The notes under the pieces were generated by a model that did no database searches, was not told the DNA's origin, and saw nothing but the letters and a program-made list of their open reading frames with translations. Source: Calditrichota bacterium (GTDB lineage Bacteria; Zhuqueibacterota; Zhuqueibacteria; Zhuqueibacterales; Geothermadaptataceae). From it: DNA of 64,000 nt. The translations under genes were made by a program, and so were the position numbers. The stretch lies in assembly GCA_008501765.1 (NCBI GenBank), contig QQUE01000002.1:244336-308335 (forward strand), in the 5' to 3' direction. Below are positions 3,205 through 15,033 of this stretch, piece by piece (position 1 is the first letter of the stretch; each line of letters starts with the position of its first letter).

Positions 3205-4194
3205 TTAGAAACCACCCGGCATTGCTGCCGGTTTTCGTTTGCTAGATTTAATAAACAGGCATTGCAAAATCGTTTCCGGAGCCTGATAATTAAATTCTTC
3301 AAATTCCGTTGTTAGCCTCTGAAAATTTTTTAAATCGAGACGCAAGCCGTACAATCTTTCTTCACCAAACTTAAAAACAATAGGCCCGTGCTTGGGTGTT
3401 AAGCCCATCACAATCCCTTTTCCGAGAAAAATTGCCGGATACTTTTTCGTAGGATTAAACTCATCGATGAGATTAAATGTATCCGCAAAAGATAGCTTAC
3501 TAAGCCCCAATGGTTTCTGTACGGTTGTTGTTTTTTTACTGCGGGAAAGTAATTGGTAAATCTGATCAATTTTCCCTTTTTCAGTCAGAAGGAGCACTTC
3601 GTCCGCTTTTTCCAGCACTTTTATAAAAGCAGATTTTTCCATTGAAACCGGGATAGCCTGATAGTGGTCCTCCGGGTGCATAAATCGAGTCGCTATGCGC
3701 GTAAGTATCGTCACCGGGGATTCAATAGTCCGCCGCACTTCAATATCGAGTATTTTTACCTGATAACTGGCTACTTTAATCTGGTTATCCGCTTGCGGCA
3801 AATTTATATAAATTGTATAATCCCGCTTCAAATTATCCGGGCGTGGCGGTTTGGACTCCAAAAGCGTCAATAAATCGTCCCGCACTTCCACCTGTCTGTT
3901 ACGCAAAGACTGCAAAATCGCTCGGTGAACAGCCTGAATCGCATTCTCTTCGAGTTCGATTTCTTCATAGGCGCAGCCAAATGTTTGGATGTAGTTGTCA
4001 CGTTTCAAATCCGCTTCCAGCGGTTTGGTCATAAAATTTCGCATTATCTGCAAAGTTGTTGATGAATTATCGTCTTGCCAGCAGTTCCTTCGGGAGACAT
4101 CACCGTTTGATGATTCATTTCTTTGAAATCTATCGTGTGATTGAGCACAGGAGAGCATTAACATACAAAGTGTGAATCCAAAAATTCTTCTCAT
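3205..4194 (-). CDS. Hypothetical lipoprotein
   Basis: 329-aa ORF with a lipoprotein-type signal (…MLMLSCAQ). No recognisable domain. Confidence 0.45.
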   Translation of the reverse strand: MRRIFGFTLCMLMLSCAQSHDRFQRNESSNGDVSRRNCWQDDNSSTTLQIMRNFMTKPLEADLKRDNYIQTFGCAYEEIELEENAIQAVHRAILQSLRNRQVEVRDDLLTLLESKPPRPDNLKRDYTIYINLPQADNQIKVASYQVKILDIEVRRTIESPVTILTRIATRFMHPEDHYQAIPVSMEKSAFIKVLEKADEVLLLTEKGKIDQIYQLLSRSKKTTTVQKPLGLSKLSFADTFNLIDEFNPTKKYPAIFLGKGIVMGLTPKHGPIVFKFGEERLYGLRLDLKNFQRLTTEFEEFNYQAPETILQCLFIKSSKRKPAAMPGGF

Positions 4195-4656
4195 AAAAAT
4201 TACCTTAAATCAGCTCTGTAAAATATGTATAATAAAATAATAGCCGTTTTTGTGCAGAATCGAACGACGGCTCTGAAATGGAAAGCGGTGTTATAATGAA
4301 TACGTTCAAAGATAGCATTTTGCATAGCAGGATATTTTGTTTTAGCAATTTAATTTTACAAGGCCTTAGCACGTGAAATATAACCAGGTCAATTTGGATT
4401 TTTTGGACTTTGATTTTGGACATATTTAAAAATGTAAAATCAGGAGCGATATGGTGATAATAACACATGTTTTGGCAAAGACAGCACGTTTTAATTCCGT
4501 TATTTTGATCAAGTTGCAACCAAGTCGTGCAGATATTTTATGCTATCCTTATTCCCACTATTGATAATAGACTCGAATCTGCAAGGAGAACTCAAATCGT
4601 CCTTTCATAATTGGGTTAATTTTTCTTCAATTATTTCAGGCCGACGATATTGATTT

Positions 4657-4943
4657 ATTGATTAGGTCTTTAGCTCCGCGGCCTTTTTCTTAAACGGCCT
4701 TCGAAAAATGGCGTTAAGAACTTTTTGAGAATTTCCGTTAAGAATCATTTTTTGTTTGAGCGCAGCGAGTTTAAAATGATTTAGGAAATTCTCAAAAAGT
4801 TTAGCCGATTTTTCGTCAGCCTTGATTTTTTTGTTTCTTTTTTGATCAAGCAAAGCCAGCGGCCGGCGAAGCAAAAAGAAAATGCACAACACATTAAAAA
4901 TTTTGCAATTGAATTAAGTACAGCGGAGCTAAGGTCACAATCA
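4657..4943 (-). mobile_element. MITE-like non-autonomous element, copy A (~287 bp; imperfect TIRs; perfect 8-bp TSD AAATCAAT)
   Basis: Reverse-complement of 4657-4943 aligns almost base-for-base with 47268-47534. Ends carry imperfect inverted termini (TGATTGTGACCYTAGCTCCGC … GCGGAGCTAAAGRCCTAATCAAT). An 8-bp direct repeat AAATCAAT flanks both ends. Contains a ~20-bp internal indel relative to copy B. Confidence 0.7.
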
Positions 4944-5282
4944 ATTGATTTATTTGTGATCGATATTTTAAGAAACAATAAGTTAGGAGAATAATCTTGA
5001 CATAAGTGCGGATAATCTATATATTTCGCGATTCATTTAGGCTCAAATTTTGCAAAACTTACACTATATTTGCTGCACGGTATTTCCTCTTTATACATAG
5101 ATATCATGTAATATGCCGCGCCTTTATACGAATTTGGTAAAATTAAAACCCTGAATATAACGCAAATATCTGCCAAAGCACGTTAGTGCGCGGCGCTTTA
5201 ACATTGAGTCATGAATAATCGTACTTATAAATTTTGTTGTAAAATTTTTACTCTCATTTCGATTTAAAATACAGGATATCCC

Positions 5283-6713
5283 ATGGCAAAAGGAATTACG
5301 AAAAGATCTGTCGACTACTCGCGTTGGTATACTGATGTTATAGCTGCGGCTCAACTTGCTGACCATGCCCCGGTTAAAGGATGCATGGTGATCCGCCCCA
5401 CTGGATATGCCATTTGGGAAAAAATGCAAGCGGCGCTGGATAAACTTTTTAAGGATACCGGGCACGAAAACGCCTATTTCCCTATCTTCATTCCGGAACA
5501 TTTTATGAAAAAAGAAGCCGAGCATGTGGAAGGTTTCGCCCCGGAATGCGCTGTTGTCACCCACGGTGGCGGAAAAAAACTGGAAGAACCCCTCTTTATT
5601 CGCCCGACTTCTGAAACGATTATTTGGTCGATGTACAAAGATTGGATCCAATCCTATCGCGATCTGCCACTGCTAATAAATCAGTGGGCCAACGTGGTTC
5701 GTTGGGAAATGCGCACGCGCTTGTTCCTGCGAACGACTGAATTTTTATGGCAGGAAGGGCACACAGCTCACGCAACTTACGAAGAAGCTGAGGCCGAAAC
5801 CCGGCAGATGCTCGAAGTGTACCGGATATTTGCGGAAGATCACATGGCTGTTCCCGTACTCACCGGAGTCAAAACCGAGCGTGAAAAATTTGCCGGTGCG
5901 CTGCATACCTATTGCATCGAAGCTATGATGCAGGATACCAAAGCGCTGCAAGCAGGAACCTCCCACAATCTCGGCCAAAATTTTGCCAAAGCATTTGACG
6001 TTACTTTTCAAAATGAAGCTGGCGAGCTGGAAAGTGTCTGGGCGACGAGCTGGGGAGTTTCAACGCGTTTAATCGGGGCACTAATCATGACCCACAGCGA
6101 TGATAATGGATTGGTCTTGCCACCTAAATTGGCGACAATTCCAGTTGTGCTCATCCCGATCTGGAAAAGTGACGAAGAAAAGCAAGCTGTTTTGCGCCGG
6201 GTCGAAAATTTGACTCGGGATTGGAAGGGTAAATTTAATTTTAAAATTGATGACCGGGACAATGTCAGACCGGGCTGGAAGTTCAATGAATGGGAGAAAA
6301 AAGGCATTCCAATCCGGCTGGAAATTGGGCCGAGGGACCTGGAAGCAAACGAAATCGTCCTGGTTCGCCGTGATACTAGCCAAAAGGTTCGTGTCTCACA
6401 GGATAATTTGACAGACCGCATCATCACAATGCTGGATACAATCCAGGCCGATATGTATGATCGGGCCGTGGCATTCCGCAAGGAAAACACGCACAAAGTT
6501 GATGATTATGAAGAGTTTAAACAACGTCTTGATTCTGAGGGTGGATTTTATTTAATCCATTGGAATGGTGAAACTTCCAGCGAAGAGAAGTTGCAGAATG
6601 AGACAAAAGCAACGATTCGTTGCATTCCCTTTGATGCACCCCAGGAAGCGGGGAAATGCCTGATTACCGGGGAGCCTTCAAAACGAAGAGTTGTTGTTGC
6701 ACGAGCCTACTAA
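5283..6713 (+). CDS. proS: Proline--tRNA ligase (class II, archaeal/eukaryotic-like type-3 ProRS)
   Basis: 476-aa ORF with clear class-II aaRS motifs and a ProRS C-terminal region (…[10 protein letters not shown]…[24 protein letters not shown]…[16 protein letters not shown]…). The short form lacking an insertion domain is typical of Bacteroidota-like type-3 ProRS. Confidence 0.95.
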
Positions 6714-11948: not shown

Positions 11949-12353
11949 ATGCAGCGTTTCTGCCGTTTCTTTGTGGCAAACCGAAAATTGTTTCTCATTG
12001 GTTTGCTGATTTTTATGCTTTATGGTTTTCCGTCGTGTTGTGATGAGGATTCCGCAGTAAATGGACCCACGAACGAAAATTGTGATTATATAATTGAAGA
12101 AGATGGAATAATTTTTCAAACAGAAGTCGGAGAGGCCACGCAGTGGGGATTTTTAATTGAGAAAGAATCGGGGGATGAAGTGTTTGCTTTGTCCGATCCG
12201 CTCTTTCTCCCAAGAAACAACTTGCCATCCTTTTTACGTTCCGAAAGCTTAAAAGTACACATCGTCGGTGTAGCTGTTCCACCAGATATCGAAAATCCAA
12301 TAAATCAATGGGCAACACCACTATTAATTTTACGAATCAATACGATTGATTAA
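11949..12353 (+). CDS. Hypothetical lipoprotein
   Basis: Strong RBS (AGGAGG) 7 bp before the ATG at 11949. Signal peptide with a Cys-rich lipobox region (LLIFMLYGFPSCC). The longer annotated ORF (11871) lacks an RBS. Confidence 0.45.
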   Translation: MQRFCRFFVANRKLFLIGLLIFMLYGFPSCCDEDSAVNGPTNENCDYIIEEDGIIFQTEVGEATQWGFLIEKESGDEVFALSDPLFLPRNNLPSFLRSESLKVHIVGVAVPPDIENPINQWATPLLILRINTID

Positions 12354-12392
12354 TTTAATAACATAATGCACTTTTAAAAGGTGGGGTTGAAA

Positions 12393-14084
12393 ATGAAATA
12401 TAGAATATCAAATATTTACGTTTTACTATTGCTGCTTTTTAGTAACATCGCATTTGCTCAATTCAAGTGCGGAACAGAGAAAGGTGATCCTGCAAATACA
12501 CGAGGTAAATCCGAATTCAGTGGAATCAGCGAAAACTCGGGCAGCATTCCGGTCATATTCCATGTTATCTTTAATTCAAGCCAGGAAGGCAATATATCGA
12601 ACAGTACTATTGAAGCCCAGTTTAATGTTTTACAAAATAAGTTTTCAGGGCTGGGTTTTAGTTATTTCTTAGCTGGAATATCAAGAACGCAAAATAATAA
12701 TTGGTTTGAAATTACTGCTACAGGCGATGATGTCGATTCAATGAGAGAAAATTTGCATATTGACACAAGACGGGTATTAAATATTTACATAACAAAGTTA
12801 AGTGGTGATACTCAAGGTGTAGCGAAATATCCCTGGTTTAATGATTGGAAACAACACGGTGTTGTGATAGATTACCGGACTCTACCAGGCGGCTCACACC
12901 CAACAAAAAACCAGGGGAAAACATTAGTGCATGAAGTCGGCCATTTCTGGGGATTGATCCATCCGTGGGAGAACGAAGAATTTAAGTGTAATGAAATATA
13001 TGTACAAATGGGAGTGGACGAGTTTGTCTGGGGGGATGGTGTTTCGGATACTCCCATCCAGAAGTCGCCTACATATGGTTGTCCTTCATTTCATGATTCA
13101 TGCCAAAGTGAACCTGGAAATGATTCTGTGCATAACTATATGGATTATGCTGACGATCCTTGTATGTATGAATTCACCGACGGTCAAATCGACCGAATGA
13201 ACCTGAAACGGAGCGAATACCGCCCCAGCATCGGCGGCTCCACAATCTATATCACCGAAAATCTCGACATCGGTTCCAACCAATCCTACGAATTCCATGA
13301 AGGTACTTACAAGTTCGCTTCCGGCAAGAAAATCAACGTTGATGGTGAACTGAATGTCAATGGTTCTTCTTTCAATCCTGTTACGTTTACTTCCAGCGGC
13401 AGTTCATGGAACGGCATCTACTTTGCTTCAGGCAGCAATGGTTTAGTGGAATACACAAATATTGAAAATCTTACCGGAGGCTATTATTCCGGCGCTATCA
13501 CAATTTCCAACGCAACACCGGAATTTCAATACTGCAATATTGAAGTTACTACCGGTTCCAATGTTTTTGCTGTTTATCAATCCGGGAATTACGTCACACC
13601 AAGGTTTTACAAAAGCAAAATTAAAAGCAACTCCCAGTCGGCATTTAAAACCAGCGGTTCAAATGGCTATCTTTCTATCTATGACTGTGAAATTGTTCAA
13701 AACTCTGGTAATCCAGCGCTTGTTGCGAGCACCGGGATTATTGAATTCTGGCGGGCAGCCACTCATTACCAGGGTAAAAATAAAATCAAAGGCGGCAAGC
13801 TCTATGCTACCAATGCCGGTCTTATCCGTGCAGGCTTGTCTTCCGGGCAACGGGATATCAACCACTTTTGCGACAGCAACGCTTCAACCTTGTATGTTTC
13901 CAGTGGCGGTGTTATTTATGCAAAATACAACTACTGGTACAACGGCGCTCCACCCACACAAATCAACATGGGTGGTACTATCTACTACAGCAACAATCTT
14001 GGCTCTTCAAGCTGCTCCGGCATCTACAAAATCAAAGACAACCTAACATCAAATCCCCCCCATTTTTTAGTAAAACTGCTGTAA
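12393..14084 (+). CDS. Secreted zinc metalloprotease, M43 (pappalysin/cytophagalysin-like) family, with beta-helix-like C-terminal region
   Basis: Signal peptide MKYRISNIYVLLLLLFSNIAFAQ. Metzincin motif HEVGHFWGLIHPWE (HExxHxxGxxH). Gly/Ser/Asn-rich repetitive C-terminal part. The reading frame ends just after a C7-T6 homopolymer tract at 14055-14068. Confidence 0.8.
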   Translation: MKYRISNIYVLLLLLFSNIAFAQFKCGTEKGDPANTRGKSEFSGISENSGSIPVIFHVIFNSSQEGNISNSTIEAQFNVLQNKFSGLGFSYFLAGISRTQNNNWFEITATGDDVDSMRENLHIDTRRVLNIYITKLSGDTQGVAKYPWFNDWKQHGVVIDYRTLPGGSHPTKNQGKTLVHEVGHFWGLIHPWENEEFKCNEIYVQMGVDEFVWGDGVSDTPIQKSPTYGCPSFHDSCQSEPGNDSVHNYMDYADDPCMYEFTDGQIDRMNLKRSEYRPSIGGSTIYITENLDIGSNQSYEFHEGTYKFASGKKINVDGELNVNGSSFNPVTFTSSGSSWNGIYFASGSNGLVEYTNIENLTGGYYSGAITISNATPEFQYCNIEVTTGSNVFAVYQSGNYVTPRFYKSKIKSNSQSAFKTSGSNGYLSIYDCEIVQNSGNPALVASTGIIEFWRAATHYQGKNKIKGGKLYATNAGLIRAGLSSGQRDINHFCDSNASTLYVSSGGVIYAKYNYWYNGAPPTQINMGGTIYYSNNLGSSSCSGIYKIKDNLTSNPPHFLVKLL

Positions 14085-14926
14085 ATCAACAATTCAGTAA
14101 TATAAATAGCCAGCAATACAATTCTCCAACAGATTCAGACCTTTTCCATGCCAAAGATCTGGAGCTTTCCGGTCAAATCGAAGCTGCGGTTACGGCTTAC
14201 AAGGAAATTATTCTCAGCGGTAAAATGCCGGTGGCGCACACAGCTTTACTAGAATTGGGTGCTCTGAACGCAACGTTGAAATCAACAGAAACGATCGGGT
14301 TTTTCGAGAGCTTGATAGTGCAGAAATCGGCATTACAGCTTACGGCCATGTTGGTATCAGCGGGGCAATACAAGACTATGGGAGAAATGAAAATCGCTTT
14401 GCACTGGCTTGAGCAAATAAGTGCTACAGCGCCGGGCAGTACGGAAGATTTCAATGCGTGTATCAATCGTTTTCATATCTATTTTCTTACAGGTGATTTC
14501 TCAGCAGCGGCAAAAGAATTGGATGAAATCAAAGTAAAAGACAATGTAGAATATGTGGAATTGGCAAGTGCAGCTTCTTTGCTAGCTCTGGAACTGCCGG
14601 GCTATTCTTTGAAACAAAGAGCACCGGATTATGATGAGTTGGGATCTAAAAATATAGAATCACCTGCAGGTTTTGCTCTGCGCAACTATCCGAATCCATT
14701 TAATCCCGAAACCATCATTTCTTTCAACTCGCCCAGCAAATCCCATGTAAAGCTCAAGCTCTTCGACCTGCGTGGTCGTTTGCTGCGGATCCTGGTGGAT
14801 GAATCATTGCAAGAAGGAAATCATGAAATCTCTTTCGACGCACGGAATTTGGCCTCAGGGACCTATGTTTATACATTGGAAGCGAACGGACACAAGGAGT
14901 CGGCACGAATGACGATTCTGAAGTAA
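14051..14926 (+). CDS. C-terminal segment carrying a T9SS (Por) C-terminal sorting domain; probably the frameshifted continuation of the M43 protease gene
   Basis: Frame-2 translation after the poly-C tract is meaningful and ends with NYPNPFNPETIISFNSPSKSHVKLKLFDLRGRLLRILVDESLQEGNHEISFDARNLASGTYVYTLEANGH…, a typical T9SS CTD. It has no signal peptide or RBS of its own. The part of this ORF upstream of 14051 overlaps the protease in another frame and looks like noise. Confidence 0.6.
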   Translation, partial: KSPPFFSKTAVNQQFSNINSQQYNSPTDSDLFHAKDLELSGQIEAAVTAYKEIILSGKMPVAHTALLELGALNATLKSTETIGFFESLIVQKSALQLTAMLVSAGQYKTMGEMKIALHWLEQISATAPGSTEDFNACINRFHIYFLTGDFSAAAKELDEIKVKDNVEYVELASAASLLALELPGYSLKQRAPDYDELGSKNIESPAGFALRNYPNPFNPETIISFNSPSKSHVKLKLFDLRGRLLRILVDESLQEGNHEISFDARNLASGTYVYTLEANGHKESARMTILK

Positions 14927-15033
14927 AGGTCTGGATATAATTACATACCGGAGTAGCTCATTAGCTGTTCCGGTATGTTTTTTGAGAGTCTCGAAATATA
15001 AAAATAACAGGCAAGAAAGAGGTGAAATTGATT

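Follow-up and report, generated by a model that had tools for sequence, protein, structure and literature searches.

A homopolymer tract separates an M43 metalloprotease from its predicted T9SS sorting domain in a Calditrichota bacterium

We analysed a 64-kb stretch of contig QQUE01000002.1, deposited as part of a metagenome-assembled genome (MAG) of a Calditrichota bacterium and hereafter called the window. It contains the gene of a secreted M43 zinc metalloprotease, in which the frame of the catalytic part ends shortly after a C7-A-T6 tract, while a sorting domain of the type IX secretion system (T9SS) follows in the -1 frame. Our preferred reading, at a probability of roughly 0.6, is that slippage has genuinely and recently removed one base from the linker region in the gene of an M43 protease exported by the T9SS, and that this gene is in incipient decay. 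A preliminary description of this DNA had placed a C7-T6 tract between the protease and the sorting domain and had argued that one secreted M43/T9SS gene is split there. The tract is indeed found at 14055-14068, and the core of the argument is supported by intact homologues with a single open reading frame (ORF) and by -1-frame coding sequence that precedes the only downstream start codon. All coordinates are those of the window, and features lie on the forward strand unless stated otherwise.

One gene in two reading frames

The tract is composed of a C7 run (14055-14061), a single A (14062) and a T6 run (14063-14068). The frame-0 codons across it read AAT CCC CCC CAT TTT TTA GTA AAA CTG CTG TAA, which translates into …NLTSNPPHFLVKLL before the stop. 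This TAA (14082-14084) begins 13 nt past the tract and overlaps GTA AAT, the codons for Val-Asn in the -1 frame; four sense codons follow TTA, close enough to the roughly five codons between tract and stop reported before. The -1 frame (i.e., the +2 frame) is free of stops from 13868 to 14926, and adding one base within the tract produces a single ORF of ~850 aa, as had been proposed. Candidate sites of the deficit are the C run (C8 to C7) and the T run (T7 to T6), and the candidate junction peptides of the fused product are …NLTSNPPHFLSK…, …NPPPFFSK… or …NPPHFFSK…. The frame-0 stop and the substitution pattern relative to an orthologue described below place the shift point no more precisely than 14028-14068; in mechanistic terms, the homopolymer tract is the likely site in this interval. 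Although the C7 run is the sole C/G run of at least 7 nt in the window, base composition predicts ~2.3 such runs. Runs of T6 are frequent (74 in the window), and CCC makes up 21% of the proline codons, so that a poly-C run is an ordinary way of encoding proline here. The tract is statistically unremarkable.

The upstream part, ORF1 (12393-14084), encodes a signal peptide, an M43 domain, a right-handed β-helix and the tail PPHFLVKLL, and is annotated as KAA3619472.1, a 'zinc metalloprotease' of 563 aa. This length counts from the annotated ATG at 12393; an alternative GTG start at 12381 would yield 567 aa. A database entry of 563 aa (P0001, NCBI 'MAG: zinc metalloprotease [Calditrichaeota bacterium]') is 100% identical to the ORF1 product. 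Residues 124-274 match Peptidase_M43 (PF05572) with 50.2 bits (cut-off 23; E = 3.4e-13). The zinc-binding motif HEVGHFWGLIH (HExxHxxGxxH) is intact at 12930-12962, and residues H184, E185, H188, G191, H194 and, in the Met-turn region, M254 are invariant across an alignment of six sequences. By the profile match above cut-off and the metzincin motif, ORF1 encodes a member of the M43 family. By-eye reading of the translation predicts a Sec signal peptide at 12393-12461 (MKYRISNIYVLLLLLFSNIAFA, cleaved before Q). The β-helix domain (about residues 288-535 of the fused protein; 13242-13985) appears in an AlphaFold model as a strand ladder with a pLDDT of ~60-85, and PF13229 is present in two homologues (P0004 and P0005).

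The -1-frame part (14069-14926) spans 285 codons and consists of the end of the linker, a TPR-like helical domain, the sorting domain and a stop, in agreement with the ~290-aa region ending in a T9SS C-terminal domain that had been described. The helical repeat domain (fused residues 583-738; 14126-14593) is modelled as nine helices with a pLDDT of ~70-90; JGI labels homologues as TPR proteins, and one of them (P0002) has faint TPR matches in Pfam. The type A sorting domain at 14687-14911 (Por_Secre_tail) is matched by PF18962 with 41.6 bits (cut-off 27) and by TIGR04183 with 36.9 bits (cut-off 23), is modelled as a β-sandwich (pLDDT ~75-85), and its match stops 4 residues short of the C terminus. 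A C-terminal domain of this kind marks a putative T9SS type A cargo. The signal peptide and the sorting domain are not found on one polypeptide, as they lie in ORF1 and in the -1 frame, respectively, and would be joined by a one-base correction. A strong intrinsic-terminator-like hairpin with a 16-bp stem and a T run (14943-14978) lies 17 nt beyond the -1-frame stop and marks where the transcription unit ends.

Public annotation gives the downstream part as a protein of its own, KAA3619473.1 (P0121; 14225-14926), a 'T9SS C-terminal target domain-containing protein' of 233 aa. Its ATG at 14225, followed by 'MPVAHTALLELG', is the first canonical start in the -1 frame past the ORF1 stop. The peptide that would begin there (MPVAHTALL) does not resemble a signal peptide by eye, and in the AlphaFold model the start falls past the first two helices, inside the helical domain. 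This agrees with the earlier claim that the downstream part lacks a start context and a signal peptide of its own. A Shine-Dalgarno (SD) check was uninformative on ATG 14225, since 19 of 45 ORFs, ORF1 included, are without such a sequence.

The AlphaFold model is based on a shallow alignment (6 sequences) and reaches a mean pLDDT of 52.6, with the M43 part unusable; we therefore employed it solely for domain boundaries in the C-terminal two-thirds. There, it resolves the β-helix (~288-535), the nine helices (583-738) and the β-sandwich (777-846). The break, at about residue 560, falls inside a linker (535-585) with no secondary structure and a pLDDT below 50. The linker varies between the conserved blocks and contains proline, and proline-rich linkers are also found in homologues.

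Searching a database of 5.8 billion clusters with the fused protein retrieved four single proteins of 790-834 aa (P0002, P0004, P0005 and P0006), which show 29-41% identity and cover 94-99% of the query. They contain M43, in some cases the β-helix, TPR-like matches and the sorting domain, in the same domain order. In the alignment, the conserved blocks pass from the ORF1 frame (…TIYYSNNLGSS.CS) to the -1 frame (…DLF.A.D…, …AHTALLELG… and NYPNPFNP…), and conserved -1-frame residues (DLF.AKD and AHTALLELG) begin upstream of the sole start codon. Intact homologues thus carry both parts in one frame, as would be expected if a single gene had been split in the window. The comparison with orthologues that the preliminary description called for is in this respect favourable, as the four distant homologues are contiguous. 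Protein searches for closer relatives gave only the two products of the window itself and homologues of at most 41% identity, and metagenome scans found none that is close, at most M43 domains at up to 48% identity. Many database relatives pair PF05572 with PF18962. With its signal peptide, HExxHxxGxxH motif and C-terminal PF18962/TIGR04183 match, the gene resembles known M43 T9SS cargo of the cytophagalysin/pappalysin type. It differs in that separate frames encode the catalytic and the sorting part and in that this sub-family, of which only about seven members were found, inserts a β-helix and a TPR-like domain.

A decayed orthologue and the age of the break

A genome scan for close relatives returned only one, the MAG Dive96_bin3.88 (JAJRYV010000086.1; L003). 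Its syntenic orthologue at 4037-5713 is 76% identical to the window in nucleotides and 68-71% in amino acids. It carries two nonsense codons (TAG in place of TAC and of CAA), a frame change near the N terminus with the loss of ~58 residues, a 3n+1 deletion of ~112 nt matching window 14094-14205, and a 525-nt deletion matching window 14315-14839. These lesions do not reflect assembly quality, because the neighbouring genes, two other T9SS-tailed proteins among them, are intact. By its sequence, the orthologue is clearly recognizable as a multi-lesion pseudogene. Its decay appears recent, at ~3-4% neutral divergence as estimated from the two nonsense codons.

The relative is informative on the frame at the tract. 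Between the flanks …AACCTAACATC[A/G] and AG[T/C]AAA…, its junction measures 14 nt (CTCCCCCTGGTTTT) and that of the window 17 nt; both lengths are 3n-1, and the same TAA is reached in both. This decayed orthologue with the same frame deficit had been overlooked in the preliminary description, as had a slippery heptamer at the tract, T_TTT_TTA. Over window 14069-14092, the two sequences differ at five positions, of which four are synonymous and one is non-synonymous in the -1 frame; read in frame 0, each of the three that precede the stop changes an amino acid. From the tract onward, the -1 frame has therefore been the coding frame. The 27 nt directly upstream of the tract (14028-14054), which adjoin the shift site, are 89% identical to the relative, compared to an average of 76%; this excess is not significant (p ~0.09, binomial estimate), and the differences favour neither frame.

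Nei-Gojobori estimates between the window and this relative gave an omega of 0.14 at a dS of 1.4 for 401 codons upstream of the break, and an omega of 0.16 at a dS of 1.06 for the 64 codons of the alignable downstream part, where synonymous and non-synonymous differences deviate with p = 1.4e-7 (Fisher). As judged from these substitutions, purifying selection has acted on both halves during most of the period after the two lineages split. We further simulated the chance that an untranslated 855-nt frame acquires no stop during neutral divergence. The frame stays open with a probability of 0.18 at 5% divergence, 0.03 at 10% and less than 0.003 at 20%. Purifying selection on both halves and this low survival of an open frame mean that a break that is not recoded must be recent. 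Two scenarios are left, i.e., a recent lesion independent of that in the relative, or an ancestral deficit decoded by recoding. Neither relaxed selection nor a second lesion was found in the window copy, and further lesions exist only in the orthologue of L003. The omega of ~0.15 reflects earlier history, and the absence of a second lesion fits a very recent event.

We thus favour a recent lesion. The ancestral gene would have encoded, in order, a signal peptide, the M43 protease, the β-helix, a proline-rich linker, the TPR-like domain and the type A sorting domain. Replication slippage in the C run or in the T run would then have removed one base. Ribosomes would terminate at 14082-14084 to yield the 563-aa protease, which would cross the inner membrane and probably stay in the periplasm; because it is devoid of the sorting domain, it could not be passed on to the T9SS. 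The 285 codons beyond would be essentially untranslated. The lesion would represent a first step of gene decay, which is far more advanced in the sole close relative. In this, the gene resembles slippage frameshift pseudogenes and split genes: one base is missing in C7/T6, the first out-of-frame stop closes the upstream part, a start and a signal peptide of its own are missing from the downstream part, homologues with a single ORF are intact, and the related orthologue is far decayed. Unlike in typical cases, there is a single lesion here and both halves are otherwise intact, the catalytic part may be expressed and active, and the same frame deficit recurs in a related genome.

Several observations weigh against a recent slippage deletion. 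As the relative has the same 3n-1 deficit, two independent slippage events at one C/T tract are needed. Such a double hit is a rather unlikely coincidence, albeit a plausible one for a hotspot. A canonical slippery heptamer is present, and it is in the right frame. The sequences that agree on the tract are consensus assemblies, which may hide minority variants (C8) or a shared consensus error. Finally, ORF1 is otherwise fully intact, and the term pseudogene is therefore certain only for the downstream part.

Phase variation, recoding and artefact

Among the alternatives, a phase-variable switch survives best, although we regard it as unlikely. Here, C8 would be the ON state with a full-length, T9SS-exported protease and C7 the OFF state with the truncated form, the switch residing in the poly-C or the poly-T run and the sampled population being OFF. 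The sole long C/G run of the window coincides with the break, no other damage is found in the gene on either side of it, and a C-rich tract is kept at the same place in the relative. In length, C7 falls into the range known for contingency tracts, and in C7 followed by T6 an in-frame repeat long enough for slippage is present. The likeness to the contingency loci of Neisseria, Campylobacter and Haemophilus is that a poly-C run in the gene of an exported protein decides by its length over the full product. It ends there: no length polymorphism was seen, as all three consensus assemblies, from at least two runs, have C7/T6; no full-length (ON) protein was found in the database of 5.8 billion clusters; and the tract is two-thirds into the gene, far from the 5' end. 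Moreover, C/G tracts are not in excess in this window (1 against ~2.3 expected), and the frequent use of CCC together with the proline-rich linkers of homologues provides an ordinary reason for a poly-C run. We found no literature tying T9SS cargo to homopolymer phase variation, and we know of no documented contingency loci in Calditrichota. The phase-variable option raised in the preliminary description is feasible as a mechanism, no observation supports it directly, and it keeps a low probability.

Programmed or compensatory recoding is considerably less probable. It proposes that ribosomes slip by -1 on T_TTT_TTA or C_CCC, or that the polymerase adds a base, and that the deficit is ancestral and shared with the relative; besides the truncated protease, the cell would then produce a certain amount of the exported, full-length enzyme. 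The sequence offers a heptamer of the X_XXY_YYZ type (T_TTT_TTA; 14063-14069), the codons TTT and TTA of which are in the ORF1 phase. Slipping by -1 at this site leads into the downstream frame, and the 0-frame stop follows 13 nt downstream. Likewise, the same 3n-1 junction occurs in the relative at a dS above 1 with an omega of ~0.15 in both halves; an ancestral deficit would imply that the downstream half was translated. This shared junction is the sole observation that keeps recoding alive, at low probability. For an ancestral deficit persisting across two lineages at a dS above 1, with both sides under purifying selection and ribosomal (-1) or polymerase slippage at the C/T tract as the recoding that this would require, we see a marginally slimmer chance still.

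Of the features of -1 frameshifting, the slippery heptamer is present, and a stimulator and a conserved shift site are absent. No stimulatory fold was detected up- or downstream (z = 0.22, -0.52 and 0.41 relative to shuffled sequences), an Rfam search gave no match, and by eye no SD-like element of the GGAGG type is found upstream. The heptamer is not kept in the relative, which has G_GTT_TTA at this position (2 of 7 positions changed) and C5, though its decay appears recent, and the four more distant full-length homologues each have one unbroken ORF. Heptamers that lack a stimulator are weak in E. coli and reach only 2-10x a background of ~0.055% (PMC4066793). The site shares with dnaX, the IS3/IS911 transposases and phage G/GT an in-phase X_XXY_YYZ sequence, a near 0-frame stop and a longer -1 product. 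It differs from them in having no hairpin, pseudoknot or SD-like element, in being T_TTT_TTA and not of the efficient A_AAA_AAG type, in not being kept in the orthologue, and in having relatives that encode the long product in one frame. To our knowledge, bacterial genes outside mobile elements very rarely use programmed frameshifting, which we counted against recoding.

A milder form of recoding has precedents in the 'savior indel' of the herpes simplex virus thymidine kinase, for which low-level compensatory frameshifting in a G7 run has been described, and in interrupted pilus genes of Bifidobacterium (Atkins et al. 2016, PMC5009743). As in these cases, a one-base indel falls into a 7-nt G/C run of an otherwise intact gene, and by this likeness a trace of full-length product is conceivable here; unlike in these cases, there is no sign that a full-length product is made or needed. 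If recoding were true, it would set the ratio of the periplasm-retained protease to the full-length, T9SS-exported form, and would be a rare instance of a frameshift deciding where a protein goes, in a bacterial gene that is not mobile.

An error of sequencing or assembly, with C8 or T7 and one intact gene of ~850 aa in the actual genome, is about as improbable as an ancestral deficit. Homopolymers are classic sites of indel miscalls, the rest of the gene is wholly intact, and all three assemblies may share one sequencing project and platform. However, the deposited MAG and the Logan assemblies of two separate runs agree on C7/T6. A 14-kb contig from SRR7585905 (L001) shows zero mismatches to the window over 6068 nt and a contig from SRR7585904 (L002) zero mismatches over 2737 nt, the tract included in both. 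Furthermore, 42 A/T runs of 7-8 nt are located inside long intact ORFs of the window, and no other same-strand ORF pair with the substantial overlap of a frameshift was found in the 64 kb, which argues against systematic homopolymer miscalls in the assembly. The independent MAG Dive96_bin3.88, from another project, has the same frame deficit at the junction. Of the three causes that the preliminary description had left open, a genuine frameshift is therefore favoured and a sequencing error disfavoured, by three identical assemblies and clean homopolymers.

Two further readings are ruled out. An ancient split that is not decoded conflicts with the downstream omega of 0.16 and the simulated survival of an open frame. 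Two genuine genes are rejected because the only start lies in the middle of the helical domain, no signal peptide follows it, conserved coding sequence precedes ATG 14225, and no promoter-like or terminator-like site was found between the two parts.

Neighbourhood and family context

Directly upstream of the protease gene lies a small lipoprotein-like gene (MQRFCRF…GFPSC…; 11949-12353), for which no Pfam match is on record in relatives. It is syntenic in Dive96_bin3.88 (48% identity) and in the contig of the homologue P0002 (L085; 29%, with the domain duplicated there), and synteny is doubtful in genome L084 (18%). From this arrangement, the small gene is a candidate for a conserved partner of the protease sub-family. 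Both Logan contigs, although from two runs, start at exactly window 12017, within this small gene, which suggests a shared branch of the assembly graph, e.g., by strain variation or a repeated k-mer. On the reverse strand downstream, precomputed annotation of the identical Logan contig gives matches to DUF3810 (PF12725; 15034-16107) and to a P-type ATPase (PF00122/PF00702; 17789-20137). The downstream neighbourhood is unlike that of Dive96_bin3.88.

In a third member of the sub-family, the link to the sorting domain is lost as well. The 715-aa protein P0003 from genome L084 (GCA_037446635.1, JBBIIG010000012.1) ends early and has no sorting domain. At 4600-4677 of L084, the last ~25 residues of the domain (MPSGVYLYRLEASGNVKSGKIILQK) remain in another frame and overlap the gene end, which points to an out-of-frame deletion that removed most of the sorting domain. 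The endpoint of this deletion resembles that of the 525-nt deletion in Dive96_bin3.88. The link between protease and sorting domain is thus lost in three of the seven sub-family members found (the window, Dive96_bin3.88 and L084), which makes independent hits more plausible and fits a dispensable, decay-prone cargo gene.

The event in the window is of an ordinary kind. For annotation, KAA3619472.1 and KAA3619473.1 are the two pieces of a single T9SS cargo gene with a frameshift and should be marked accordingly. If, as we favour, the lesion is a recent slippage deletion, it illustrates how homopolymer tracts in interdomain linkers may serve as first-hit sites when a dispensable secreted enzyme decays.

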